A DNA stretch of 17,698 nt from a virus (IMGVR_UViG_3300000292_000161), one strand, 5' to 3'; counted from the stretch's first letter, positions 1 through 14,649 are shown. Translations and numbers: made by a program. The notes: generated from the letters alone by a model not told the origin.

Positions 1-321
1 ATGTTCAGGCTTGTTGTCCTGCGCGCGCGTATTGCTCGTGAAATTGCTGTAACCAATAGTGATGTCCGAAAAAACCTCCGTTCTCACATGAAACAGCCAT
101 GTGCAACTGGTAACTGAATAGACTGGTAGACCGTTCGTTCAGTAAATACCTGATATTTTCGCCAACGAGAAATTGCGTTGGCTGGCAGAGTGCAAATTTG
201 CACGATGACCTAACCCATTGATTTTTTCGAAAACCTACAATGCAGGAAGCCGGATAACACCATTTTTATAGCTCCGATCCCTTCAAAGTGAGGGGGAATT
301 TGCCAAAACAGAGAGAGAGCA

Positions 322-609
322 TTACTGTCTCTGGCAATCTTTATCGCGATAACGCCTGAAGTACCCTCTCGCTTCCTCATCCATACCAAGAGCCGAATGA
401 GTCCGCTTAACTGCCTGTCTTAAATCTCCGAATCTGTCTGTAGTTGCTGGTGGGCGTGCCGCCTTACGGATACATTCAGAGCGTCTGTTTGCTGCATGTT
501 CACGTTCTTTATCGCCATCTGCCAGCATCATGACTTCTGCCCATCGTGCGGCAGCTCTCCGGTATAGCCCTTTTGACTCCAGCTCTTCAGCTTTCCTGTC
601 CCTTATCAT
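322..609 (-). CDS. small basic regulatory protein, tentatively PerC-family-like transcriptional activator
   Basis: 95-aa ORF with ATG at 609 preceded by GAGAGG about 6 nt upstream. N-terminal AEELESKGLYRRAAARW resembles my recollection of PerC-type activators; family assignment is unverified. Confidence 0.5.
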   Translation of the reverse strand: MIRDRKAEELESKGLYRRAAARWAEVMMLADGDKEREHAANRRSECIRKAARPPATTDRFGDLRQAVKRTHSALGMDEEARGYFRRYRDKDCQRQ

Positions 610-645
610 TTCTGCCTCTCAGATTATATAGATAAGCAAAAAGGT

Positions 646-766
646 GTTGGTTCAGTTGGTTCAGTTGGTTTAATTTGTAAAGATCGTTGTTTTTATTGTG
701 TTTTTTCTGAAATGTTGAACCAACATCAACTCATTTTGAACCAACACAGCCCAGCTCTGAACCAAC
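646..766. repeat. iteron array: three tandem direct GTTGGTTCA copies followed by three inverted TGAACCAAC copies at 21-bp phasing
   Basis: Read directly: GTTGGTTCA at 646-654 and 655-663, GTTGGTTTA at 664-672; TGAACCAAC at 716-724, 737-745, 758-766. Lies in the divergent region between the 322..609 and 869..1312 genes. Confidence 0.8.
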
Positions 767-818
767 AACACAGCGATAGCTTTGTGATTGGTCCGTTATT
801 TTCTGGCTGATATTTGAG

Positions 819-851
819 CGTATAACAGTGTTATACAGTGGTATACTGTAT
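819..851. promoter_or_regulatory. operator-like imperfect repeats and palindrome just upstream of the RHH-like gene
   Basis: TATAACAGTG / TTATACAGTG / GTATACTGTAT; ATACAGT-GGTAT-ACTGTAT inverted repeat at 833-851, about 18 nt before the ATG at 869. Confidence 0.35.
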
Positions 852-868
852 GGATATTACTCACTGAT

Positions 869-1312
869 ATGGTCTTTGCAATGAGCAAATCTAATCTGAT
901 CGCGTTCCGCATCCCATCTGAATTGCAGGATGAGTTTAATCGGTCTGTTCTCGCTTCTGGAGGGGATAAAACCTCCTGGCTTGTTGATGCGATTCGCATG
1001 AAGCTGGGACAGCCGGAAAAGTCTATTGATTCACGAATGCTTGGGCTGGTGGAGCGCATGGAAAAAGCCGCTGCGTCGCTTATTGCCGGAAAGCCGAACA
1101 TCCCACCAAAGCCATATAACGAAACGGCAGTTATAAAGATCATTGCCGATACCATCCAACAGGGATTTGATAATGGGCGTGTGATAGCGGAACGGCTCAA
1201 TGAAGCAGGCTATCAAACAAAAGCTGGTAAAGCATGGGATAAAGACATTTACAGCGCGTGGAAGCGTCAGGGAAGCAATGCTGAAAAGTTATCAGTGGCT
1301 CTAAGAATGTAG
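869..1312 (+). CDS. putative ribbon-helix-helix (Arc/CopG-like) DNA-binding protein with C-terminal extension
   Basis: 147-aa ORF; alternative ATG at 881 (MSKSNL). N-terminus NLIAFRIPSELQDEF...SWLVDAIRMKLG fits a beta-strand/helix/helix RHH pattern. No clear SD for either start. Confidence 0.55.
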   Translation: MVFAMSKSNLIAFRIPSELQDEFNRSVLASGGDKTSWLVDAIRMKLGQPEKSIDSRMLGLVERMEKAAASLIAGKPNIPPKPYNETAVIKIIADTIQQGFDNGRVIAERLNEAGYQTKAGKAWDKDIYSAWKRQGSNAEKLSVALRM

Positions 1313-1328
1313 CCCTATATTTTGATTT

Positions 1329-1706
1329 TTAGACGTGCTCGGAGAACAGGTAGCGTGCCATCACTAAAACAATGCCAAAGACTTCAGCGAGGGTTCCCCC
1401 CATAAATAGGTTTATAACGAAATCACTAAAATGGAGCAGTTTTGCTCCAATAAGGACAAAAATCCCATTCATAACTAATAGCTGGCCTATCAGAATGCCG
1501 ATAAACCACCGAGCAAACATTTTTTTCAGTTTTGTGTCTGTTTTTAAATCTTTTGTTTTTGCACGCTGATGGGCTTTGGCTGGATCCTTATCATTTAGAT
1601 GTGTGAGGGTTTTTGCTGATGGAGATGAGCCAGAGGCTGGTTCACCTCTGGCTTGTCTTGCCGCTTGCTTTAGTTTTTCAGATATAGCGTAAGATCTAGA
1701 CGTCAT
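1329..1706 (-). CDS. small membrane protein (polar/basic N-terminus, two C-terminal TM helices)
   Basis: 125-aa ORF; ATG at 1706 lies 3 nt after the TGA of the upstream ImmA-like gene (coupled). Hydrophobic segments FIGILIGQLLVMNGIFVLIGA and GGTLAEVFGIVLVMARYLF. Confidence 0.6.
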   Translation of the reverse strand: MTSRSYAISEKLKQAARQARGEPASGSSPSAKTLTHLNDKDPAKAHQRAKTKDLKTDTKLKKMFARWFIGILIGQLLVMNGIFVLIGAKLLHFSDFVINLFMGGTLAEVFGIVLVMARYLFSEHV

Positions 1707-1709
1707 TAC

Positions 1710-2198
1710 TCATCGAAGCCCTAAATTCTTTAGGCGATAACGTATAGCATCATCGGATACACCAAAATAGGAAGCCATCATTACTGGTGCATATCCTGCA
1801 TTGTTGAGGCGTCGAACCTCTTTTTCTGGCATGAGAAGACATGCTGCAAAGTTATTGGCGAATATTTCTTCGCTGTCTACACCTTGGCTTGCCAGTTTTC
1901 CGCGGTAATCAACAAACTCATATTCAAGTGGCTGACCGTTCTCAGTTCGTTTGACGTAATGCCCTAACTCATGCGCACACGTAAATCGTTTGCGCACGTT
2001 ACTATCATTACGATTGAGTATGATTACTGGATCTTGTTCTGGCTCTTTCAGCAATGCGCCTGAAACATCATCATCAAGCGTGGTTTCAACAACATCCAAC
2101 CCTAACTCATTGGCAATCCATACTGGATCAACCGGGAATTTCCTATCGCCCCAGATATCTTTCAAGAGGGCATGTGCAGATGTATTCGACATGTTCAC
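1710..2198 (-). CDS. ImmA/IrrE-family (DUF955, COG2856) zinc metallopeptidase
   Basis: 162-aa ORF with HEXXH (FTCAHELGHYV) followed by the family-typical ANNFAACLLMP. Strong SD AAAGGAGGTGAAC immediately before the ATG at 2198. Confidence 0.85.
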   Translation of the reverse strand: MNMSNTSAHALLKDIWGDRKFPVDPVWIANELGLDVVETTLDDDVSGALLKEPEQDPVIILNRNDSNVRKRFTCAHELGHYVKRTENGQPLEYEFVDYRGKLASQGVDSEEIFANNFAACLLMPEKEVRRLNNAGYAPVMMASYFGVSDDAIRYRLKNLGLR

Positions 2199-2886
2199 CT
2201 CCTTTGATTATGGTTAAATAGTCGAAATTTTCACCACTTCCCTTGTGGATATATTTACATATAAAAGGTAACTAGTCACTAACCAACACAAATCTTTTTG
2301 AAGACAGATGGGGGGTGTTGAACGGTTTTTAAATGATTTCTTTGATTTTTAACAGCAATAAGGAGCATTTTTAATGAAATTAGACGTTGATAATAACTTT
2401 TTGAGCAATCTTTACATATCATGGTAGCCTTCTATGCTGTTTTTCCAACTAAAAGATTGGCACATTTATCCGCTGGTAGTGGCGTTTTTTCGCCGCCAGC
2501 GCCTCTCTGGTTCCATTCCTTACATCTGTTCAAATTCAGCAACCCTTGCCGCGATCTTGCCGTTATCGAGAAGCTCTTTCGCTTTTCGGTTAATACTATC
2601 GGTCTTCATATTGCCAGCAGCATACGCCATCCGATAATTTCGATGCTACGCGCGCGTACTTGTCGCAAAATATCAGGCAAAGGCCAGATTCAGAAAGTCG
2701 TGATAACCACCAGCACAACATGAGAGGTCATGTAACGCGATTTATCACACCAGATACATGTGATTGGTGTACCCGCATAAAACATCGTCATAGCGCGTCC
2801 TGTGCGCATATACGCCGATAATCAACACATCACCACCACTCTGTCTCGTGTAGAGAACAGTTTCATGGTATCCCCCGCCATCGTGT

Positions 2887-2949
2887 GCGTACTGGTCGGA
2901 CGTGGTTGCAAAATTTTTGCAACTGATACCCCTCGCGCGCGTACTGGTC
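2887..2949. repeat. two direct GCGTACTGGTC 11-mers flanking a perfect 19-bp palindrome
   Basis: 11-mers at 2887-2897 and 2939-2949; palindrome GTTGCAAAA-T-TTTTGCAAC at 2905-2923. Related (CG)4-containing copies at 2647-2664 and 3013-3027. Confidence 0.6.
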
Positions 2950-3142
2950 ACGAAATTGGTGTTTTGCTGTGGCAGTGATATCAGAAAAATCTTCCTGTTT
3001 CACATAAAGCGGATATGCGCGTACTGTAACGGCCCCATCAACGGGGAGCGGATTTGAAATCCCGACCCAAGCTATGTACCAAATGCCATGTCTTGGATAT
3101 ATGATGATTGCCATTCTAAACAAAGCTAAAGGGAGGGTTGGT

Positions 3143-3518: not shown

Positions 3519-5636
3519 CTAGTCATTATCTGGATCATTAGATAGCCAAGTAATGATGCCCAGTCTGGCGATGGTCCGTTTTTCCTGTTCAGGAAGAGAG
3601 TTAAAAAAACTCTTCCATTGAGGGGAGCGCCTGATACGTGAATCAACAATGTGCCCAGGCGCTTTTCCGTGTAGATTTTTTACTGCGCTCTGGAAGGCTG
3701 GCGAGGCAATTAATTTATCCGCAGCATCAGCCGCCCCTGCTCCACCAGCTAATCGAGCTTTACTCGCCAATCTTGCTCCAATATCAGCCCCAGCAATGGC
3801 TCCAAGCGATCCAAAATGAGCGCCTACCATCGTGCCTATTTTTTGAATGTGTTTTGCTGCTAGTTCGTATGGAGCTGTTACCCGATTAAATCTGTTTACA
3901 AACTCATTCAGCTTACCAGTAGATATTTCATGCGCTTTAGCATTTTTTATTGCTCTGGCAACTTTGTATACATCATATAGTCCGCTCATTGTTTCTTTTG
4001 GCAAATGTTCAGCCAAAGTCTTTAGCTGTCCACTGTGTTGCAAGTTTTGCCACCAATCTGCAAAGCCAGATGGATTAAAGTCGGCCCCACGCTTCCCAGA
4101 GGAAAGCATATCTCTTAATGCTGTTCCTACTAGCTCCCTTCGCAATGTTCTTGATGGAGTATTTTGCATAATCTCACGAAACCCTCTCGCATCACCTTTT
4201 GCCATAGATTGAAGAGAATTCGTTACTTTATACGCTATATCCCCATTAAGTGTTTTCCCGCGAAGATTTACCATTTGCCTTTCTAAGTTTTTTCTCATAG
4301 CTACAAGGCGTTGTGCGACTTCGAAATCTCGCAAGTATCCAGTATTGGATAAGACAGATTTTTGGTCTTCAGCTAAAGCTCCATATAGTCTTGATAGCGC
4401 TTCTTTATCAGCATCTTTGTATGGCCCCTGCTTTTTATTTAGGGCATCACCAACTAAACGCCTTTGCCTGTTTAAATTTGCATACGTTAGGATGCTATCT
4501 GGGCCGGGGTTTATTGCTGTAAAAACTCGCTTTTCTATTGGGTCAAGATTATCCCACCCTCCTAAATCATCAGCGATTTTTTCCAGCATAGTGCTTGTGT
4601 TATTTGCTTCGACTTTTGTTCTTGGTGATAGAGCGGAATCAACACGTTTATATAACTGATCACTACGGTTTTTTAGTGCTTCCATTCTACTATTTATCTG
4701 ATAAATATATTTTTCGCTCATAGCTAACGCATCTGGCGCACCAGCAACATCATCGATTATCTTGTCAGCACTAGAGGCTAATTCGCTTATTGCTTTATCT
4801 TCTTGAGCTTTTAACGCTGATCCTGTCCGTGACTTTAGGGCTTGCTCTACAGCTTGGTATTGCTCATTTCCTGATAAATGAGAAGGAAGAACTGAATCAA
4901 CATGAAGCCTATTTGCAGCCTCAACAATTTCTTTCTGAGGTTTTAGATCTAGCCCTTCAAGCGAAGAGGCAAGATTTGGGTTGCCTTGTGCAGATAACTT
5001 ACGAATTTTCTCTTCGGCAGGAGTAATCCCCTCAATATCTGGAATCGAAGAAACATTCTTCTTGGTTAATTTCCCAGCTATTTTATTAATTGCAGGGCCA
5101 GCAAGTTCGGCTACAGGGCCAGCCACAGCGCCAATAGCAGCGCCGGAAGCAACATCGCTATTTGTTCCATTGGCTACAATAGCCCCTTCTCCAGCACCAA
5201 GCCCTACGGCGGCAGCCAGTCTTGCCGCCCCTTTGGGAACCTGAGAAATAATCCCACCACCACTAACAAATGGCGCTGCTTGTCCAACGAACTCACCAAC
5301 ATCTTGTGCGGTTGATGGTTTTGCCGCTAACTTCTGCTGTAGAGACTGAATTGCGGCTTGCTCTTCTGGTGTCATATCCTGAAACAGGCCAACACCTTTA
5401 CCAACATCCATCAATCCACTGAGAACGCCATACATAAAACGGTCGAAACCGTTAGCATTATTAACAACATTTTCCTGTCTGGAATTTTCCTCTGGTGAAA
5501 CCAAAGGTGATTGCTGCTGTTCTGGTTGGGCATCAAGCACAAAACCATCAGGAAGCTGTGAACTATCAGGAAACTGTGAGTTATCAGGTTGTTCATCGAG
5601 CACAAAACCTTCCGGTAAGATTACATTTGCTGCCAT
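3519..5636 (-). CDS. hypothetical 705-aa protein, repeat-rich N-terminus, Gly/Ala-rich low-complexity tracts, C-terminal glycine-zipper-like segment
   Basis: ATG at 5636 with AGGAA 7 nt upstream; overlaps the upstream gene by 16 nt. N-terminal repeats LPEGFVLDEQP / LPDGFVLDAQP; C-terminal GAHFGSLGAIAGADIGARLA; no Walker or nuclease motifs seen. Confidence 0.8.
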   Translation of the reverse strand: MAANVILPEGFVLDEQPDNSQFPDSSQLPDGFVLDAQPEQQQSPLVSPEENSRQENVVNNANGFDRFMYGVLSGLMDVGKGVGLFQDMTPEEQAAIQSLQQKLAAKPSTAQDVGEFVGQAAPFVSGGGIISQVPKGAARLAAAVGLGAGEGAIVANGTNSDVASGAAIGAVAGPVAELAGPAINKIAGKLTKKNVSSIPDIEGITPAEEKIRKLSAQGNPNLASSLEGLDLKPQKEIVEAANRLHVDSVLPSHLSGNEQYQAVEQALKSRTGSALKAQEDKAISELASSADKIIDDVAGAPDALAMSEKYIYQINSRMEALKNRSDQLYKRVDSALSPRTKVEANNTSTMLEKIADDLGGWDNLDPIEKRVFTAINPGPDSILTYANLNRQRRLVGDALNKKQGPYKDADKEALSRLYGALAEDQKSVLSNTGYLRDFEVAQRLVAMRKNLERQMVNLRGKTLNGDIAYKVTNSLQSMAKGDARGFREIMQNTPSRTLRRELVGTALRDMLSSGKRGADFNPSGFADWWQNLQHSGQLKTLAEHLPKETMSGLYDVYKVARAIKNAKAHEISTGKLNEFVNRFNRVTAPYELAAKHIQKIGTMVGAHFGSLGAIAGADIGARLASKARLAGGAGAADAADKLIASPAFQSAVKNLHGKAPGHIVDSRIRRSPQWKSFFNSLPEQEKRTIARLGIITWLSNDPDND

Positions 5637-6964
5637 TTTCCGTTCCTGTAAATGATTTTCTGACCAGTTTTAGGGTTGGTTGCCGTTGCGCCTTCTGATA
5701 TTCCTCCGGTTGCCGCTTTTGCCTGTCCAGTGCCAGCCTGTGATGTAGGCTGCCCGGAAACATCGTCAAATAGCTTCGCTTTCCTTCTTTCAAGGCTTTT
5801 TCTTAGCCCCTGAGGAATAGTTTCTCCATATGTATCGAGATACTCGTCAACCTGCTGGTTAAACTGCTGCCCCATAGCATTGGCGTTGATTTTTGCGGCG
5901 TTAACAATGTTATCCTTTGCCTCCTGCGACAGGCCGTTTCCAGCATTAAGCTGGTCTATGTATCCTTTGATTTGTCCCCATATGCCATCAGACCGCATTA
6001 CCTGAACCTGTTCGCCTTCACGAACGACTGACTGCGGGTCAAGAGATTTCATGTAGTTGAAGATAATCCCAAGTTGGGCAGCGCCAGTATTTACCTTGCT
6101 AAGGGCTTGCAGAGAGTTTGCCGCCGCTCTGACAGAGTTATAATTTTTGCCAAAATTGGTAATGTCAGAATTTAATCCCTTAATTAAGTCTGCTGACGGC
6201 TTACCTTTTTGCCCCAGCTCCATTAGCTTCAATCCCATCTCATCTGAGTGAATTTGTGCTCGCTGAGCCCTGTCTAGTTGAGCGTTCTGGATATTTGCCC
6301 ATCCTCTCGCGTTCTCCATGTCAGCCTGACGCATACTTTCATCCAGTCGCCCTTGCTCAAGTCGACGACCTTCCATTTGATCTTTGATATCGAAATACTT
6401 CTCATGACCGAGAGAAAACAGCGCCAGATTACCTGCGAAATGCTGGAAGCCCTGCGGGTCATTAACCTGCATTTCAGCAATAGTTTCTGGAGGGATACCT
6501 AAACGACGCATCTCCTGCTCATTATCCATCATGAACCTGCCAAATGCGCCCTGACCAAGCGATGAGGCTACCTGTGCTTTGAGCGCCAGATTGCCATAAT
6601 CATCCCTTTGAGCATCATCGACATAACTCATCCCTTTACGGACTTCCTCAAACTCTTCTGGGAATGCTGTAATAAGATTACGCATCTGCTCCCTGTCACC
6701 GGACGCATAAGCATCTGCATAACCTTTCTGGAATGCCGCTTTACGTTCCTGCTGTTGCTGCTGCTTATAAATGTCAGCAACTCCAGCCAGACCACGAAGA
6801 CCTGTCAGAGCAACGTTATTTGCACCTGAGCGAGCCAGTTCATTGTTTTCGCGGATCAGACCAAGCGTTGCGTTAATGTCGCTTGCCTTTGGCGCATTCT
6901 CATTTTGCGCACCGATGCCAGCCAGAAAACCACCAGAATTAATACCCTGTTGCCACGTAGCCAT
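5621..6964 (-). CDS. hypothetical 447-451-aa Gln-rich, probably coiled-coil protein
   Basis: ATG at 6964, 4 nt after the TAA of the 57-aa gene (in-frame GTG at 6976 is the alternative start). Contains poly-Q KQQQQQERK and many Q/E/R heptad-like stretches; no catalytic motif recognised. Confidence 0.8.
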   Translation of the reverse strand: MATWQQGINSGGFLAGIGAQNENAPKASDINATLGLIRENNELARSGANNVALTGLRGLAGVADIYKQQQQQERKAAFQKGYADAYASGDREQMRNLITAFPEEFEEVRKGMSYVDDAQRDDYGNLALKAQVASSLGQGAFGRFMMDNEQEMRRLGIPPETIAEMQVNDPQGFQHFAGNLALFSLGHEKYFDIKDQMEGRRLEQGRLDESMRQADMENARGWANIQNAQLDRAQRAQIHSDEMGLKLMELGQKGKPSADLIKGLNSDITNFGKNYNSVRAAANSLQALSKVNTGAAQLGIIFNYMKSLDPQSVVREGEQVQVMRSDGIWGQIKGYIDQLNAGNGLSQEAKDNIVNAAKINANAMGQQFNQQVDEYLDTYGETIPQGLRKSLERRKAKLFDDVSGQPTSQAGTGQAKAATGGISEGATATNPKTGQKIIYRNGKWQQM

Positions 6965-7142: not shown

Positions 7143-7236
7143 AACGCCCCCCTTAGAACTGTATAAAACAACAGTCATTATAGTTTCATAAAACGCAACA
7201 TTCATCATTGTGATTGCAAAATATGAAACAAATAGC
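7143..7236 (-). promoter_or_regulatory. candidate promoter of the 57/451/705 operon
   Basis: Perfect -10 TATAAT on the minus strand (plus-strand ATTATA at 7177-7182), about 35 nt upstream of the ATG at 7142. The -35 is poor; sits just downstream of an intrinsic terminator. Confidence 0.35.
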
Positions 7237-7271
7237 ACAAAAAAATGCCACCGTTCAGTAGCTGGTGGCAT
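7237..7271 (-). terminator. rho-independent terminator for leftward transcription
   Basis: Minus-strand RNA would form AUGCCACC-(11-nt loop)-GGUGGCAU followed by a U7 tract (plus-strand A7 at 7238-7244). Confidence 0.6.
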
Positions 7272-7636
7272 CGTTCTGTATGTCAGGTTTTGACAGTTTT
7301 TTTATGGACTCTAAAAACTATATTTATGGAGTCGCATTACTCTTCACGGCAGGCGCTTTCCAGTTCTGCCCTTGCTTCTGGCTCCATTGGTAATTTGATT
7401 CGCGATCAGCTATGCGGATGGTTTGCTGAACAGGCATAACAACATCTCAGAGGCTATTTTTTGAACTACGAAAATTTCGTAGTGCTCACCTTCAAAAACG
7501 TCACGCCCTTGTACACTGGATTTTACAAAAGTCTCGTAAAACTCTTTGCTGTTCTGGGCTATGTGCCAAACCGCAGCGAATACCTCCGTCTGCCAGATGA
7601 GCAAAACATACCTTATAAAGAAAATCGCTGTTTTTG

Positions 7637-7740
7637 CTGTACCACCTGTACCACCATGTCACAAACCCTTGTGTGGCGCGGCCTGCAGGTGGTACAGGTG
7701 GGTAAAAATGACCTCTCCCCACCTGTACAGACCTGTACCA
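7637..7740. repeat. iteron cluster 2 (GGTGGTACAGGT family, both orientations), crr-like
   Basis: CTGTACCACCTGTACCACC at 7637-7655, GGTGGTACAGGTGGGT at 7688-7703, CACCTGTACAGACCTGTACCA at 7719-7740. Confidence 0.75.
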
Positions 7741-7745
7741 TTTAT

Positions 7746-8483
7746 TTAATTTTTACCCATAGCAGCACATAATCCCTTTTTTGAAATATTGAAAAATGCG
7801 TTCATTCTTCCCGCTGGCTTAACCTTGTAGCCGCTTGCCACCATCGCCGCAATAAATGCTCCGTTGGGGATATAGTGCGGGTGATCACTGTGCTGGTGGT
7901 TTATCTGGTTATATCGCTCCACTTCATGCTTCAACGTGTCAGATGTGGGGTTATCCTGCGGGAAGCTCTCAATCTGGGCATTACTCATCCCGTTGTCTCT
8001 GATCCATCTCAGGCAGCTTTTCGCCGATACGATAAATGACGGGTTATCAAGCGGGTTTTCCCAGTCCGCATTCCGGTTGTGGAGCGCCAGTCCGTCAAGG
8101 TTAAATTGTGGGTATTCAGCGGTAATTACTGTCACTGCGTGGCGGATTTCAGTCTCGTCACAACATGGCTCATCTCCCACACCAGCAGGGTAATAATCTG
8201 AACCACCGGGACTGATACAGCGTTTACCACTGAAAGGCCATTGCTTCGCCATTTCGGGTGTTGAGTGATTACCGTCGCTCCGTTCGCGCTGTGCCTCTGT
8301 CCACTGGCTGGCATATTCAGTAAATGAAACTCTTTGCCCCTGGCGCATCCAGTGCGCAATCATAATTAAAGTGCGTTCCAGACTTTGGATGTCGCCAGCA
8401 TTCCCGCACTGTGTAGCGAAACTTTTTAATTCTTCGCGCTCCGTTCTGGTCATTCCCTGCAGTATGCAATAGTTATTGTTCAT
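7746..8483 (-). CDS. hypothetical 245-aa protein
   Basis: ATG at 8483 with SD AGAGAGGT; overlaps the 3-prime end of the upstream 76-aa gene by 11 nt. No motif recognised. Confidence 0.75.
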   Translation of the reverse strand: MNNNYCILQGMTRTEREELKSFATQCGNAGDIQSLERTLIMIAHWMRQGQRVSFTEYASQWTEAQRERSDGNHSTPEMAKQWPFSGKRCISPGGSDYYPAGVGDEPCCDETEIRHAVTVITAEYPQFNLDGLALHNRNADWENPLDNPSFIVSAKSCLRWIRDNGMSNAQIESFPQDNPTSDTLKHEVERYNQINHQHSDHPHYIPNGAFIAAMVASGYKVKPAGRMNAFFNISKKGLCAAMGKN

Positions 8484-8703
8484 GTTTTACCTCTCTGATT
8501 TCTGCTGCCATATCTGTTGGCTCTATACAGCCGTCCCGACTTGCCACGCAGGGAATAATGATTTCAACGGTATCGCCGTCAATACACATTTCAACATTCG
8601 CCCATGCCGCAATGGGTAGCCAGTCTGAACGCCCCTCAAACCGTAGCTGCCAGCCAGAGGAAGAAGCTAACTGGCGCACTTTGTAAAATGGTGTGCTCAT
8701 CAT
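8473..8703 (-). CDS. hypothetical 76-aa protein
   Basis: ATG at 8703 (or 8700) with SD GAGAGGG about 8 nt upstream. Confidence 0.6.
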   Translation of the reverse strand: MMSTPFYKVRQLASSSGWQLRFEGRSDWLPIAAWANVEMCIDGDTVEIIIPCVASRDGCIEPTDMAAEIREVKHEQ

Positions 8704-8747
8704 TGGTTGTTCCCTCTCAGCCAGCCAGAAGAAATGCGTTTGTTAAT

Positions 8748-8850
8748 GGTATAGGTGGTACAGGTCTGGTATAGGTAAGATATTGACCTGTACCACTATA
8801 ACGCATTGTTTTTAATGCTGAATTAGCAAAGTGGTATAGGTGGTACAGGT
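8748..8850. repeat. iteron cluster 1, candidate replication origin immediately 3-prime of the primase gene
   Basis: Perfect 18-mer GGTATAGGTGGTACAGGT at 8748-8765 and 8833-8850, partial copy at 8768-8776, inverted copy ACCTGTACCACTATA at 8786-8800. Confidence 0.75.
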
Positions 8851-8879
8851 AAAAACGATCTTCTTGTAAAAAGACTATA

Positions 8880-11307
8880 TTAAAAAACATCATAACCCCC
8901 CATACCGATCAGACGGGCAAACGCAGCCTGTAGAACTCCGACCTCTGGTAGTTCGTAGAACACGCCATTCCCTCGGTCTGGTCTTCCATGCTTCACCAGC
9001 CCCATTTGTGCAAGTGATTTACCCAGTAGTGATCTGGCAGCTGGTTCTTTAAGCTTTTCCCCACGCTCAAGCGACCACGCTACAAACCGACTAACCATAT
9101 CCTTTGCAAACAAACGGACTTCGCCATTAAACGGAGGTTCATTGATTAGCTCGCCATAAAGAAACAATTCAACGCCAGACAGCCCCAGCAAGATTTCTTC
9201 ACGTAAGGCATCGGTCTGTGGCGCTCGTTGAGGGTCAAAACCTGAGAGATCCACCCCTTTAAGATGCCAAAGCAACTTTGCGGCACCGCCATCATTAAGC
9301 CAACTGTACAGCCGATCAAAATACTCCCGGCTCTGTGCTTTTTCAGGAGATGGCTCAAGCACGAGATAGCGGCGCTCTCTTATCCCTGCCTGTAATACCT
9401 GTGTGCTGTTACTGGCAAATATCAACCGGGCAAAATTCGGCATTGGTTCAGCATCAATTCCCTTGCGCTCAAGGTTAAACGTCGGTTCGCTAATAATCGC
9501 TTTAAGTCTGTCAGCTTCAGACGGCTTGTGGATCGTCACTTCGTCAGCAAATACCAGTAGCTTGTTAGCAAGTATTGAATTGAAGCGCCCTGAAATATGT
9601 CCCGCCCCGTTAATGTGGGCGGCGTACTGCCCCAGTATTTGCAGCAGCGGTTTAACCGTTGTGCCTTTCCCTGTGCCCGGGACAGATTTCATCACGATTG
9701 CCACGGACGGTTTTTCATCAGGCTTTTGGATAATGTGCGCCATCCACTGGATAAGATATTGGTATGCCTCTTCATTACCGGCACAGACAACCTGCAACAG
9801 GTGATTAAGGTATACCGTGCAATCTCCTTCAATTGGTTCCAGTGCCAGCCCCTCATACAGATTAAAAACATCGTCAGGGCATTTGTCTGGTACTGGATAA
9901 AATCCTACGCCTCCTGGCTTGTAGTTCTTCCCACTCCATGACAGCCACGCCGATCCCGCCAGCTTTCTGGCGACTCTCGGTTTATGATGAAAATAATGCT
10001 GAAATTGTGATAAATCCTCGAAAACGTGCGATACACCGCCGGTTTGAGAAGGCTTTAGCGACACCACCTTGTGTTTCCCGCCGATGGTGACATGCGTAAA
10101 CGTCCGGTTGATTTCTTCGAGGACAGCAATTTCATCATCGCTTAACACCTCGCCAGAACTGATCTCATTCAGCGCCCCGACTGACTGTTTGTGATTTTTC
10201 ACCTGCGCCCCTTTCCCCCGTGGCTGGTACATCGAATCTTTAAATGCTGCTGTGGCTGCCGCCAGCCCGTGTTGTTGGTGATAGTCGTTCCAGTCGGCTT
10301 TATAGTCAGTCGGTGGCAGAGACACCCAGCCAGCTACGGAAATAGCGGCCCTCTCTGCGGCATCTTTCCCCGTGTTGATCCCTCCACTTTCGGAGTTTCC
10401 TTGCTGGTGATCGTTATCTGCGGCAATGATGATTTGTGCCTGTGGATATGTTCTGCGCATGACTTCCGCTACTGGCAACAGGTTGCCAGCGTCGATTGCT
10501 GCCACTGTCATTGCGTCAGGGCGAATTAAATGGCACGACAGGGCGGTAGCCACCCCCTCAGCAATTATGNNNNNNNNNNNNNNNNNNNNNNNNNNNNNNN
10601 NNNNNNNNNNNNNNNNNNNNNNNNNNNNNNNNNNNNNNNNNNNNNNNNNNNNNNNNNNNNNNCTGTGCGTTTATGGCGTGATATGCCCCTCGCTTTGCTG
10701 AACCTGTCAGGAGTCTTTTTTCACCATGTGAGGTAATAGTCTGTGCTGCTGTAACTGCGCCGGATTTATCCACCAGCGCCAGCAACAGAGATCCATCGGG
10801 CAACACAGGGAATGTAAAATCACCTACCCCTTTCGCAACCAGATAATCAGATTTGCCGTTTACAGCCTTTCTGCGCATGTCATCAAACTGACGGGAAAAC
10901 GTATCCCGTCTTTGTTGTTCGTCCTTCTCTGCCCTTTTCAGGCGCTCCTGTTCGCGTCGCTGGCGCTCGGTTTCCAGTTGTTCCCGTTTCTGGCTGGTGG
11001 CTTCTGGTGTTTCCGTTGTCCGGTAATCAATACCCAGAACATCAGCGGCAAGCAGCGCCGCCTCTGTTGTGTCGCAGTTATTTACGCGTTTAATTAAATC
11101 CAGCCCATCACCAGCGCCGCACTGATTACAGATGAAGCTACCGCGCCCGTTGTCATCGAACCGGAATCGGTCTTTGCCCCCACATGCAGGGCAGGGAGCA
11201 TGACGGCGCGGAGAGTCAGGGACATTTATGTTCAGGCAGCCCAGCACATGAGGCCAGTTGTTTTCAGACGCACTGATAACCTGACGGATAAGATCAATGT
11301 TTCGCAT
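8880..11307 (-). CDS. P4-type DNA primase/helicase (Zn-ribbon + TOPRIM + D5-like P-loop NTPase), interrupted by an assembly gap
   Basis: N-terminal piece (10558..11307) has CPACGG...CNQCG zinc ribbon; C-terminal piece (8880..10553) has IIIAADND (TOPRIM-like) and P-loop VPGTGKGTT. ATG at 11307 with SD ACGGGGG. Frame across the gap is uninformative. Confidence 0.85.
10570..10662. other. assembly gap (93 N) inside the primase gene
   Basis: Run of n characters read directly from the sequence. Confidence 0.99.
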
Positions 11308-11319
11308 TCTGGCCCCCGT

Positions 11320-11922
11320 TTAGTGCGTCACTGGTGCTTCTGGGATGCCGTTTTCGTTTAGTTCGGCAATAAAGCTGTTGTGAAGATCGGCAAGCACTTC
11401 TCGCCCAAACGAAGTGAGTGTTCCCTGTTCGACATCGAACATGTTGCTGTAAAAAATGATGGCATTCTTTGTTCCGACATCAACACCATATTTCTCGATC
11501 ATTGCGCCCTCAATGTTGTTTGCCATAGCGAGGCGCTCTGCTACTGGATACAGCGGCATGGCGACGATGCCATTGGAATAAACAGAAACCACGGAATGAT
11601 TGCCACTGTCATCAATAATGCTGACGGTGCCGTTTTCCTTTCTCATTTCATTGATTAATGCTGTTGCTATCAGCCAGCGCCACATAATCACGTGATGCTG
11701 TGATGTGTAATCGAAATATCCCTGGTTGCCGCCACTGGCAATAGCGAGATGTATAAACATGCCTTCATCTGGTTTATCGTCATAATCCCCGGCATCCAGA
11801 CGATTTACGGCATCAATATATGAGACGGTCTCAACGCGTTCTGTCATGCCATTGTTGCTGCGGTGCATGATGTTTACGCCGTCAGGCGTTGCTTCTGCAT
11901 GGAAGGTTAAGAAATTATTCAT
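11320..11922 (-). CDS. hypothetical 200-aa protein
   Basis: 235-aa ORF trimmed to the ATG at 11922 (MNNFLTF), with SD GGCGAGG and an ATGAATAA stop/start overlap with the upstream 73-aa gene; 12 nt upstream of the primase start. Confidence 0.7.
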   Translation of the reverse strand: MNNFLTFHAEATPDGVNIMHRSNNGMTERVETVSYIDAVNRLDAGDYDDKPDEGMFIHLAIASGGNQGYFDYTSQHHVIMWRWLIATALINEMRKENGTVSIIDDSGNHSVVSVYSNGIVAMPLYPVAERLAMANNIEGAMIEKYGVDVGTKNAIIFYSNMFDVEQGTLTSFGREVLADLHNSFIAELNENGIPEAPVTH

Positions 11923-12136
11923 GTTTCGCCTCGCCTGAATGATTCTGTAACTCATATTTGCCCAACAATTCGTCCGCTTCCTGAATAGCTTCTGGTACGC
12001 CATTGAGCAGTGACATAACCGCGCCAATCATTAACTTGTCTCTGTTGCTTGGGCTGGCCCCTTCAAGCCAGAACCCTAAAACAGTCTGAACCTGTTCGAT
12101 GCGACATTGCGCTTCAATGAGCTGGATGTTGGTCAT
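11915..12136 (-). CDS. hypothetical 73-aa protein
   Basis: ATG at 12136 with SD GGAGAG 8 nt upstream; ATGA overlap with the preceding gene. Confidence 0.6.
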   Translation of the reverse strand: MTNIQLIEAQCRIEQVQTVLGFWLEGASPSNRDKLMIGAVMSLLNGVPEAIQEADELLGKYELQNHSGEAKHE

Positions 12137-12396
12137 TTCGCACTCTCCACATCGATTAAACTGATATCTATCAGGGAGGTAACTTTTTGTAGCCAGCTAT
12201 TGATTACTGTCGCCTGTTCCCCTCCCACCGATGGAAGAATCTCATTCATCACATGAACCAGACCTGTGCGCGCTCTGGTAAGCCGTTCAGTCGTGCGATC
12301 TGCAAGAGTGAATGTGTCTGGATATGGCTCTTCACGGCTCAGCAATGATTCAATTTCCAGCTCACACGGATGACGATAAATTAAGTTGATATTCAT
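12133..12396 (-). CDS. hypothetical 87-aa protein
   Basis: ATG at 12396 with SD GGGGGTGA; ATGA overlap with the preceding gene. Confidence 0.6.
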   Translation of the reverse strand: MNINLIYRHPCELEIESLLSREEPYPDTFTLADRTTERLTRARTGLVHVMNEILPSVGGEQATVINSWLQKVTSLIDISLIDVESAK

Positions 12397-12587
12397 TTTT
12401 CACCCCCAAGAATTACCAGCTCTGCACGGGCATCGTTAACCAAAGATGAGCACGCTTTAATCGCATCCACGACATCAGTAGCGTCCATTTCTTCAGCCGA
12501 AAGACTGACAGCAACCAGGACAGCCGCTGCTTGCTCGATTAATTGAAGTGCGGACGTAAGGCGAGGGGTATTAATTGAGTTATTCAT
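12393..12587 (-). CDS. hypothetical 64-aa protein
   Basis: ATG at 12587 with SD ACGGGGG; overlaps the end of the preceding gene. Confidence 0.6.
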   Translation of the reverse strand: MNNSINTPRLTSALQLIEQAAAVLVAVSLSAEEMDATDVVDAIKACSSLVNDARAELVILGGEK

Positions 12588-12798
12588 TGGTTGCCCCCGT
12601 TTTTACTGGCATTTCGCCACCTTCCAGCAGGAAATGAACGTCACGAACGGCGAGATCCAATATCGCGAGTAACGCCTTCAGTCTTTCGTCTCGTGAGGGA
12701 GAGTTGCTCACCAGAATGTCGTTAATCACTTCTGTCAGTGTGATGATCTGGCTTGTGCGTTCGAGGGGATCCATATGCACATCGTAGTTTTTAATCAT
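12580..12798 (-). CDS. hypothetical 72-aa protein
   Basis: ATG at 12798 with SD GGAGGTG 5 nt upstream; this is the 3-prime part of the 355-aa open frame. Confidence 0.5.
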   Translation of the reverse strand: MIKNYDVHMDPLERTSQIITLTEVINDILVSNSPSRDERLKALLAILDLAVRDVHFLLEGGEMPVKTGATNE

Positions 12799-12985
12799 GT
12801 GCCACCTCCATGCGGATACGACCAGCAAAAAAGCAGATGTGATCGCGCACCAGAGAACGGCGAGCATCGCGTTCAGACTCGGCAGCAATATGATGAATTT
12901 TGGCGGTAATTGTCGGGCAATCGCGGCGAACTGCGGCGATAATCCAGATAAATTGCGTTTTTTGGGTAGGGGTAGTAGCCAGCAT
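12791..12985 (-). CDS. hypothetical 64-aa protein
   Basis: ATG at 12985 with strong SD AAGGAGG 7 nt upstream and good enterobacterial third-position codon usage; different frame from the 355-aa ORF it lies inside. Confidence 0.6.
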   Translation of the reverse strand: MLATTPTQKTQFIWIIAAVRRDCPTITAKIHHIAAESERDARRSLVRDHICFFAGRIRMEVAHD

Positions 12986-13647
12986 GTGGCAGCCTCCTTC
13001 AGATAGCAGGTTACGCTACCACCGGAAACGCCAATTTCGCTGGTGGTAGCCCAGACAGGGTTGGCGTAACCGGCTCTGAAGGATACCGGCGCTTCCGAAG
13101 AAGCCCCCGCCTGAGCCACCATTGATTGACAAAGGCGCTGGATTATACACCAACGCCCAAAAAATGGGTGAGTCAGACCTACGACATAAAAAAAGACGCT
13201 CGGCGCGTCATATGTCGCCTTCAGAATTTTCAGGACGCCAATCCCGGCACCCGTTTTATGAGGTGCCTTATAACCATAAACCGTGTTGCCGCATAACGGC
13301 AAGCTCTTTTTTATGGACTCCGAAAACTCACTATTGGAAGAACCAGAAGCACAGTACATCGCGCTCATTTCGTTAACGTCACGCGCGTGGACGAAGGTTT
13401 TTGTGGAGTCACTACACGAGCAGAGAAAGCCATCTACGACCAGAAATTCTCTGGCATAGCCGCTGACCTTCTCAACGCTAACACCATCGACCGTAATTTC
13501 TGACATAGTTAAGGCATCCGCTCCTACCACCAGCAAATGATAAACTTTGCTTGTATCTGCTGTATTAATGTCTGACTTTGCTGTCATATTGCTGGATTTT
13601 GGCGACATACCAGCCAGTGAAAATGTCTTCTTCTGGACGGGTATCAT
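12986..13647 (-). CDS. hypothetical protein, start well supported, 3-prime end undetermined
   Basis: ATG at 13647 with SD GGAGGT and ATGA overlap with the upstream gene. Coding-like to about 13010, but the frame has no stop until 12580, so a frameshift or sequence error is possible. Confidence 0.4.
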
Positions 13648-13823
13648 TGGTTAACCTCCGCGAACTCCTTCATGAAACGCGCCAGCGGTTGTACGCATGG
13701 CGATTGATACCCGTCGCGATAAAACGTCACTCGGTTGTGAGACACGCTTTCGACAGTAACGAGTGCTCCGTGGGCATCTTTGTAGCGTTTTTGTGGTTGT
13801 GGTATTCCTGTTGGCTTAGACAT
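13644..13823 (-). CDS. hypothetical 59-aa protein
   Basis: The 88-aa ORF begins with TTG; more likely start is the internal ATG (MSKPTGIPQ) with GGAGG 6 nt upstream, overlapping the stop of the antirepressor-like gene. Confidence 0.5.
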   Translation of the reverse strand: MSKPTGIPQPQKRYKDAHGALVTVESVSHNRVTFYRDGYQSPCVQPLARFMKEFAEVNQ

Positions 13824-14649
13824 TGAGCGCCTCCAGACGCTTGGCGAGCCAGCGTTGCGACAGGTGGGTGAGTTCTCCTTTGCGCTGCTCATATTCCATG
13901 CCCATATCAATTAACGTGATATTGGTGCTTTCGAGATATGAGAGGTGCTCAAGCTGTTCTGCGTTCATATGGTCGCGAGGTTCGCCAGAATAGCCATTTA
14001 TCCGCGCCCACTGCTTAGCAGTTAGCCCACCAAGAACGATACGAGAAATCATATTGCTCTCGTTTGTGTAGTGGTGTTGCTGCGTCGTTTTCCCCTGCTC
14101 GGCACGGGCCATGTTCAGCGCATCGCACATTGGCTTAAAGTTGTTTGCGGCACTGATACGGGCTTTTAGCTGGCGACGATAGCGGGCGGCGATTTCAGGC
14201 ACGGTACGCTGTAATTCTTCCTCGCACTGGATGAAATAACGACGGATAGCGCGACCCTGATCATTGCGTTCGATCATTGCCAGTTCTTTCGCCATTCCGA
14301 CACTTAACAGATAGTCTTTGCCGGGTCTGCCAGAGTGCTTAATCTTGCTGTAAGCCGCGCCATTCGGGCTTTTCCCCAAATTTGGGGAAATTGTTTTATG
14401 GACTGAGTAATCGTGCCCAATGGTGAAGTCATATTCAGAGATGCGATCAGTGATCCATGTAGAGAAGTCTTTTCCCACGCCCAACGCTTTGTGTAACGCT
14501 TTTGCGCTAACAATATTGGTTTCACGCCCACCTATATGACCAGAAATAACCGGGACAATTGCGGCAAATTCATTACCGTTAATTGTGCCCAGAGAGGCGT
14601 TCAGATGAGGGGCGGCCTCAGAAATTAATCTGCTTTTTTCGATGTTCAT
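13816..14649 (-). CDS. phage antirepressor-like protein (Ant/KilA-type DNA-binding domain), tentative
   Basis: 277-aa ORF, ATG at 14649 with SD GGAGA. N-terminal region IVSAKALHKALGVGKDFSTWITDRI resembles antirepressor/Bro-type domains; assignment is by pattern only. Confidence 0.7.
   Translation of the reverse strand: MNIEKSRLISEAAPHLNASLGTINGNEFAAIVPVISGHIGGRETNIVSAKALHKALGVGKDFSTWITDRISEYDFTIGHDYSVHKTISPNLGKSPNGAAYSKIKHSGRPGKDYLLSVGMAKELAMIERNDQGRAIRRYFIQCEEELQRTVPEIAARYRRQLKARISAANNFKPMCDALNMARAEQGKTTQQHHYTNESNMISRIVLGGLTAKQWARINGYSGEPRDHMNAEQLEHLSYLESTNITLIDMGMEYEQRKGELTHLSQRWLAKRLEALNV

Follow-up and report, generated by a model that had tools for sequence, protein, structure and literature searches.

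A 22-mer common to a P4-related satellite island and phage small-terminase genes is a candidate pac site

The window analysed here, the whole 17,698-nucleotide (nt) viral stretch IMGVR_UViG_3300000292_000161, is 100% identical to an 18-kb island in the dinD–yicC interval of Escherichia coli bloodstream isolates. The island is a P4-related satellite, with an integrase, an AlpA-like regulator, CI/seqA-type immunity, an alpha-like primase and iterons, and it carries two copies of a 22-mer that also occurs within phage small-terminase genes (terS), of which the E. coli representative is that of the P22-like phage CUS-3. The 22-mer is probably, with a likelihood put at about 0.6, the pac recognition site for the CUS-3-type small terminase protein (TerS), which the satellite would use to hijack P22-like headful packaging. 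A second motif, found in terS genes of the Sf6 type, also occurs in the window, and the island most likely holds candidate TerS sites of two families, with two copies of the CUS-3 type and three of the Sf6 type.

The 22-mer in the island and in phage terS genes

Copies 1 and 2 of the 22-mer agree at 20 of 22 positions on the same strand, copy 2 having a GAGTCCAT part and an A-run. A degenerate form of the pattern has two matches in the window with 0.01 expected, and no direct pair at 20/22 was found in 40 dinucleotide-preserving shuffles (best shuffled pairs 18–19), the only other window pair as good being the iterons at 8744/8829. The original prediction had described this pair, with one copy between genes beside a terminator, the other inside a coding region, a partial third copy beside a perfect 20-bp palindrome and all of them in the same orientation on the leftward transcript. 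All of this was borne out, with the positions right within a base, the terminator at 7239-7271, the 'ash' open reading frame (ORF) at 12580-13647, the partial copy at 14391-14404 next to a palindrome at 14371-14390 and every copy on one strand. The copies and the features that adjoin them are as follows.

7298..7319, minus strand: 22-mer copy 1 (plus strand TTTTTTATGGACTCTAAAAACT, gene strand AGTTTTTAGAGTCCATAAAAAA), non-coding, 26 nt upstream of the terminator
13307..13328, minus strand: 22-mer copy 2 (plus strand TTTTTTATGGACTCCGAAAACT), inside the 'ash family protein' ORF
13306..13330, minus strand: 25-nt stretch containing copy 2, TGAGTTTTCGGAGTCCATAAAAAAG, identical to CUS-3 terS
7323..7333, minus strand: half-copy GACTCCATAAA, 22 nt upstream of copy 1
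13400..13410, minus strand: half-copy GACTCCACAAA, 90 nt upstream of copy 2
14391..14405, minus strand: partial copy (plus strand TTGTTTTATGGACT, CAGTCCATAAAACAA), located in the antA/antB gene, where the reading frame differs
14371..14390, no strand: perfect 20-bp palindrome TTTCCCCAAATTTGGGGAAA, adjoining the partial copy
7239..7271, minus strand: intrinsic terminator (ATGCCACC...GGTGGCAT plus T7), ending the replication operon

Copy 1 lies outside any ORF, with in-frame TAA and TAG stops directly upstream. A post-hoc pattern that takes in the half-copies, GASTCCAYAAA, has four exact matches in the window, all on the minus strand. The half-copy at 7323-7333 varies in close relatives (GACACC or GACATC in loci L194-L202) and is therefore probably not essential, and that at 13400-13410 is kept at the same offset in all window-type satellites. 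The partial copy at 14391-14405, with 11–14 nt matching, goes beyond chance only nominally, and the relatives found for the antA/antB gene that carries it were only ones 97–99% identical, none of them diverged. All three window copies follow a hairpin on the plus strand; since the hairpin region is a variable promoter spacer in other satellites, the hairpin is not conserved, and the combination of hairpin, T-run and ATGGACT was rejected both as a conserved structural unit and as a plus-strand terminator.

An exact-pattern scan of viral contigs found the 22-mer at no fewer than 120 loci, and at 84 or more of these it lies within small-terminase genes, encoding (E/K)F-x-ESIKK; outside terS genes it was found in satellites of the island's family. 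Window 13306-13330 is identical at 25 of 25 positions to codons 47-55 of the 146 in CUS-3 terS (pairwise E 8e-6), with homology on neither side of the 25 nt, and the segment falls in the N-terminal helix-turn-helix region of CUS-3 TerS. The full 22-mer is single-copy in the CUS-3 genome (40,207 bp), with one more match to the 11-nt core on the other strand. A search of the phage collection with the region around copy 1 gave no match.

Homologues of this terS were gathered by degenerate peptide patterns not covering codons 49-53, giving after removal of near-duplicates a set of 17 loci at 42–100% amino-acid identity from Enterobacterales, Pseudomonas, Parabacteroides and metagenome-assembled genomes of several phyla. 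Codon use within the motif among these homologues was as follows.

F49: TTT in 15/16 terS homologues
E51: GAG in 13/14 terS homologues
S52: TCC in 13/13 terS homologues
I53: ATA in 10/10 terS homologues
K54: AAA in 16/17 terS homologues

These codons form the only multi-codon adjacent run of such invariance in terS. In the remainder of terS the leading codon of a column is typically found in 0.3–0.7 of sequences, with other Ser columns using four to five kinds of codon and other Ile columns using ATA in just 2/11, 2/13 and 6/16. The codon between F and E is free in both amino acid and DNA, as it is between the satellite copies. Such invariance indicates that the motif is under selection at the nucleotide level and travels with this TerS family across phyla, and a site recognised by TerS would be the simplest explanation of the constraint at silent positions. 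Conservation at synonymous positions, the lack of which the original prediction had named as part of what would refute it, was found strongly in the phage terS genes and not in the genes of the island.

The C-terminal end of CUS-3 TerS (~20 residues) is common to Sf6-type TerS and the N-terminal domain is different, a pattern that fits a joint exchange of the DNA-binding domain and its site. Of 5,426 complete E. coli genomes, 586 (~11%) have CUS-3-type terS, annotated only as 'hypothetical protein'. No recognition site for CUS-3-type TerS was found described in the papers searched, and a literature search for the 22-mer sequence itself returned irrelevant matches only. The start of the phage N7 record was considered as a hint to a packaging end and set aside, with the record opening 18 nt into terS and its note being uninformative.

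The distribution of the 22-mer among satellites was followed in 66 loci gathered by the isrK promoter and hairpin, with presence of the motif not required. In 36 of them the 22-mer lies 42 nt upstream of the isrK -10, with upstream flanks that fall into several mutually unalignable classes; across the loci the -35 (CTTG...) and -10 (TATGGT) are conserved and the spacer between them varies. The distant AT-rich satellite L027 has the exact motif ~150 nt from an isrK-like promoter. In loci anchored instead on the 57-aa gene of the island, the counterpart of copy 1 is kept beside different terminators and flanks (L198, L203, L205). The segment at 13307-13330 behaves as an exchangeable cassette: in about a third of related satellites (type 2, L125-L171) its place is taken by AAATTGCCGCACCGTGACAAAAAGGGCTTG, seen only in satellites, and in P4 and 'type 4' satellites by CTCTGCA(C)AAAA.... 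The idea that each satellite type mimics another terS was dropped, as the 'type 2' sequence AAATTGCCGCACCGTGACAAAAAGGG, searched together with peptide-level back-translation, was found in satellites only.

The second motif, shared with Sf6-type terS genes, has three copies in the window, which form repeat family D1.

2936..2955, minus strand: Sf6-type terS motif copy TTTCGTGACCAGTACGCGCG
2651..2670, minus strand: Sf6-type terS motif copy TTTTGCGACAAGTACGCGCG, with 14 consecutive nt (GCGACAAGTACGCG) common to Kapi1/Sf6 terS
24..43, minus strand: Sf6-type terS motif copy TTTCACGAGCAATACGCGCG, equal to the metagenomic Sf6-type terS consensus

The consensus of 78 diverse metagenomic Sf6-type terS genes, TTT NNN GAN CAA TAC GCG CGC GCG, is exactly that of the window copy at 22-43, and the homologous segment of phage Kapi1 terS reads GAT TTT CGC GAC AAG TAC GCG. 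Within the 78 genes, which were gathered with one peptide pattern covering the motif residues at the amino-acid level only, TTT, CAA, TAC and GCG are used at 0.85, 0.76, 0.92 and 0.80 respectively, compared with 0.30–0.50 for GCG in most other Ala columns and one reaching 0.54. The gene mean for third-position information was 0.32, and these four codons reached 1.31, 0.75, 1.60 and 0.83. CUS-3 has no match to the pattern TTTNNNGANNAGTACGCG and the Kapi1 genome a single one, in terS; the window has two strict copies and one loose copy. Of the 66 satellite loci, 20 contain the pattern, with 0.006 expected by chance; its 31 copies there all lie on the gene strand, and for 27 the isrK promoter follows within 300 nt. 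As the motif upstream of isrK is out of the terS frame, the resemblance is not one of protein homology. Two of the window copies lie in a 900-nt stretch (2200-3100) without an annotated gene. A related box (GGTTTTTTCGGACATCAC and GATTTTTCTGATATCAC) stands ahead of the copies at 24-43 and 2936-2955 and recurs in other satellites. The fragment of terS-like peptide at ~2530-2640 was dropped as it was without Pfam support.

The packaging-site reading and its alternatives

If the 22-mer is a pac site, growth of a P22-like helper would supply TerS able to bind the excised, replicating island at the 22-mer or the Sf6-type sites, with the large terminase TerL cutting near the bound sites and island concatemers being packaged by headful into helper capsids for transfer. 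Titration of TerS by the island sites may add interference with helper packaging. Searches of the annotation, Pfam and PHROG detected no terminase or capsid gene in the island. It carries two P22-type ejection-protein genes with ~90% DNA identity to their counterparts in Kapi1, a phage with Sf6-type TerS, and the gp20-like gene is 86% identical to the CUS-3 gene over 280 nt. These genes are an independent link between the island and P22-like virions.

The arrangement has a precedent in P22, where pac is a 22-bp asymmetric sequence within the TerS gene (PMC9611059; PMC8022706). The 22-mer is likewise short (~22 bp), asymmetric, placed inside a P22-like terS and single-copy in the phage. Sf6 pac is reportedly located in the DNA encoding the TerS DNA-binding domain, and the 22-mer falls within the coding sequence for the N-terminal (helix-turn-helix) third of TerS, which CUS-3 does not share with Sf6-type TerS. 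Unlike P22 and Sf6 pac, the 22-mer has its own sequence and belongs with another family of TerS DNA-binding domain (CUS-3 type), its role as pac is drawn from silent-site constraint and distribution only, and the sequence is also present in satellites.

Several observations weigh against a packaging role or limit the case for it. Thirty of the 66 loci carry different sequences at the position of the 22-mer, without the core motif in the stretch fetched, and these replacing sequences have no counterpart in any terS gene; with about half of the related satellites lacking it, the motif is not required for the whole family. The counterpart of copy 1 has decayed in L204 and L206, the copy at the isrK site in the same loci being perfect. 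In E. coli-type satellites the motif adjoins the -35 of the isrK promoter, such that a regulatory role is possible instead of or in addition to packaging. Genomes with the island also hold prophages with such a terS only a little more often than genomes at large: on adding terS segments to the query, 17 of 60 island carriers gained a second match, a mild enrichment over the roughly 11–12% of all genomes that is confounded by shared ancestry. As a positive control the silent-site signature was applied to P22-type terS, where pac is known (codons 90-97); third-position information is 2.0 at E90, V95, T97 and R98, within or adjoining pac, compared with 0.1–0.8 in most of the 20 upstream codons, a local rise that comes from a sample little diverged across the whole 3′ half of the gene. 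Finally, binding of TerS to pac is weak in vitro (PMC9611059).

A broader scheme, which is speculative and on balance doubtful, would have P4-related satellites of enterobacteria carry small arrays of TerS motifs copied from the DNA-binding-domain segments of at least two terS families (CUS-3 and Sf6 types), located immediately upstream of the isrK/seqA promoter, where bound helper TerS would both start headful packaging and signal helper late expression to the immunity switch. The arrays would then lie inside a translated leader resembling P4 Eta (see below). As a corollary, the DNA encoding the segment just after the helix-turn-helix would be the binding site of the very protein it encodes, a self-reference that would fix protein and site across phyla and make pac predictable from silent-site conservation alone.

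The location of the 22-mer next to a promoter raises the possibility, which is unlikely on the evidence as a whole, that it is an operator, an activator site or an UP element through which a satellite or host protein controls the isrK promoter and the operon boundary at copy 1, with its presence in helper terS being either a coincidence or a result of a satellite protein targeting the terminase gene by way of interference. In keeping with such control, the A-run lies at -38 to -45 of the promoter in 36 E. coli-type satellites, with -35 and -10 conserved and the spacer variable, and AAAAAAGAG fits the proximal UP-element consensus, reportedly AAAAAARNR. The alternative sequences at the same position in other satellites also resemble an exchange of specificity. 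Against it, what follows copy 1 is a terminator, with no convincing promoter beyond the copy, and in L027 the motif is ~150 nt from the promoter. The silent-site constraint in terS reaches phages of Bacteroidota and other phyla in which such satellites are not known, and the Sf6-type motif behaves in the same way as the 22-mer.

It is improbable that the copies are scars of recombination with helper terS, or short patches of homology for it, without any recognition by a protein in the island. Homologous recombination needs ~25 nt of identity, about the length of the exact match to CUS-3, the island holds other phage-derived DNA such as the gp20-like gene, and in L198 a homology breakpoint lies right at the motif. 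Scars would be expected to decay, however, and satellites with flanks too diverged to align keep the motif unchanged save for the free NNN codon; moreover, homology never exceeds the constrained core, and two terS families supply the constrained segment only, in a single orientation.

A translational signal has very little in its favour as an explanation of the conserved feature: ATA AAA AAG holds the dnaX-type -1 slippery heptamer A_AAA_AAG in frame in both terS and the 'ash' ORF and weak hairpins follow the window copies, but in terS homologues the positions at which the -1 frame ends are variable and not conserved, the heptamer is broken in some of them (AAA AGA, AAA ACA) with GAGTCCATA kept, the constraint includes TTT and GAG TCC AT that slippage does not need, copy 1 is outside ORFs and the hairpins are not conserved among satellites.

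Immunity RNAs and the 'ash' ORF

Copy 2 lies directly upstream of a P4-type immunity module, and 4 nt separate the end of its A-run from the isrK -35. The elements of the module are listed below.

13189..13279, minus strand: isrK / c4-a1b1 element, the P4 seqA analogue, with its own terminator (Rfam)
-35 TTGCCG at 13297-13302 and -10 TATGGT at 13273-13278, minus strand: inferred isrK promoter, -35/-10 conserved across the 66 loci
13039..13126, minus strand: C4 / P4-CI-type antisense RNA (Rfam RF01695, 79.9 bits)
12580..13647, minus strand: 'ash family protein' ORF, 355 codons, with a nested 72-codon ORF (12580-12798) in the same frame at its end

The match to isrK RNA (RF01394, 67.8 bits) spans 13189-13266, with a weak match to c4-a1b1 at 13227-13279, and the P4 cI region aligns to window 12964-13220. 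The isrK RNA is a structural homologue of the seqA RNA of P4, in which immunity depends on pairing of the CI RNA with seqA and seqC (PMC4825925). In the island, the C4 loop UCCUUCAG is complementary both to CUGAAGG in the isrK element and to CUGAAGGA, which lies over the Shine-Dalgarno sequence of a 64-codon ORF (12791-12985), and the C4 loop ACGCCAA has its complement UUGGCGU at two places, one in the isrK loop and one just downstream of C4. The module is thus like the CI/seqA/seqC system of P4 and the c4 system of P1 and P7 (a1b1, a2b2) in having an isrK/seqA-like RNA, a C4/CI RNA and complementary a and b boxes.

The original prediction had suggested that the 22-mer copies themselves could be analogues of seqA and seqC, RNA-level targets at which pairing with a small immunity RNA would bring about premature termination. 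The analogy holds for the locus, with isrK and C4 beside copy 2, and fails for the motif, with the C4 loops pairing elsewhere. In support of such targets stand the position of copy 2 relative to the immunity module and the sense orientation of every copy on the leftward transcript. The complement of the 22-mer, proposed as a candidate regulatory RNA, has no copy on the other strand of the window, and the motif core (10–11 nt, up to one mismatch) is likewise absent from that strand. The C4/CI-like RNA has as its targets UUGGCGU and CUGAAGG(A), within the isrK element and just downstream of C4; its loops do not pair with the 22-mer, and for C4 or isrK RNA paired with the three sites the duplex energies stay within 1 standard deviation of shuffled controls, or are weaker. 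The Rfam models begin at 13279, downstream of copy 2, which ends at 13307, with copy 1 a further 6 kb off, and phage homologies to the module begin at isrK and never reach the 22-mer. Unlike the boxes of the P4 and P1/P7 systems, the 22-mer is no target and not complementary, and it is absent from P4 and from the phages with the isrK/C4 module (SfV, P1-like phages and D6). With the silent-site conservation of terS in unrelated phages also left unexplained, pairing with an immunity RNA is hardly credible as the function of the copies. The protein-binding site that the same prediction offered as its alternative agrees with the best explanation in a specific form, that of candidate TerS sites.

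At the start of the 'ash family protein' ORF stand a Shine-Dalgarno sequence and an ATG overlapping the stop codon of the DUF4222 gene, and in nearly all of the 66 related loci no stop interrupts its frame across the RNA genes. Residues 124-232, which match Pfam Phage_ASH, fall exactly on the isrK and C4 RNA genes. The ORF resembles Eta of P4, and together with the nested 72-codon ORF it can be likened to the eta/kil arrangement that has reportedly been described for P4. The Phage_ASH family may consist largely of translated RNA genes plus a leader translated to prevent transcription termination, and the annotation 'ash family protein' can be corrected to that of an ORF overlapping two RNA genes. 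Homology between the Eta-like ORF and the TerS DNA-binding domain was considered and rejected, as only eight encoded residues are alike and the Sf6-type motif is out of frame there.

Related satellites, gene order and cargo

Satellites with helper packaging signals are well known, and the island is a variant with pac-type motifs of intra-terS origin. The Vibrio phage-inducible chromosomal island-like element (PLE) reportedly carries the pac site of phage ICP1 (bioRxiv 10.1101/2024.04.22.590561). The island is like PLE with ICP1, P4 with the P2 cos site and the cos-type phage-inducible chromosomal islands of E. coli in being a terminase-less integrative element with a helper packaging sequence. 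It is unlike them in that its presumed helper would be a headful P22-like podovirus, its P4-related backbone is without sid, delta, psu and cos, and it combines motifs of two TerS families in several copies, with one cluster directly upstream of the immunity promoter. The genes sid, delta and psu and the cos site are absent from all 66 satellite loci, so that comparing 22-mer carriers with canonical P4 features gives no contrast. No description of P4-related satellites exploiting P22-like phages via pac copies was found in the literature searched.

Should the packaging reading hold, the 22-mer would be a candidate pac site for a TerS family widespread in E. coli (~11% of complete genomes), and a group of P4-related satellites may exploit headful P22-like podoviruses by copies of pac and not by P2-type cos. 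It would also give a signature for finding pac, a silent-site-invariant run in terS combined with the same sequence in satellites, by which satellites could be matched to their helpers.

The island genes discussed are all on the minus strand. Their order starts with the integrase, the AlpA-like regulator, an AntA/AntB-family protein and a DUF4222 protein, continues with the 355-codon 'ash family protein' ORF, small ORFs, a DUF5906 primase and two small ORFs with flanking iterons, and ends with the terminator, the 57-aa gene, the two ejection-protein genes and the cargo genes. The ejection-protein genes are placed as follows.

3519..6964, minus strand: P22-type ejection-protein genes, gp20-like at 5621-6964 and gp16-like (PHROG 'DNA transfer protein') at 3519-5636

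A gp7-like gene is not present beside them. The DUF5906 primase of related loci is 31–40% identical to P4 alpha. In the window the primase is broken into two ORFs by a run of 93 N at 10570-10662, where the complete genome has 17 bases and a single 783-codon gene.

Next after the primase gene come the ORFs at 7746-8483 and 8473-8703, flanked by two clusters of iteron-like repeats (7631-7745 and 8744-8854; GGTGGTACAGGT and TGGTATAGGTGGTACAGGT, in both orientations), an arrangement reminiscent of P4 ori and crr. A near-palindromic box, TTTTGCAATCACAATGATGAATGTTGCGTTTT (7150-7235, minus strand), lies upstream of a TATAAT and the 57-aa gene. Diverged satellites keep the outline of the box (TTTTGCAA ... 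ATGA ... TTGCG), which probably serves the downstream operon as operator and promoter. At the cargo end, window 1-2200 holds a PerC-family regulator (322-609), an ImmA/IrrE metallopeptidase (1710-2192) and small unknown ORFs. The replication-module segment of the island (7340-8850) is present in 490 of the 5,426 complete E. coli genomes, including enterotoxigenic E. coli (ETEC) H10407, O6:H16 ETEC and lineages of extraintestinal pathogenic E. coli.

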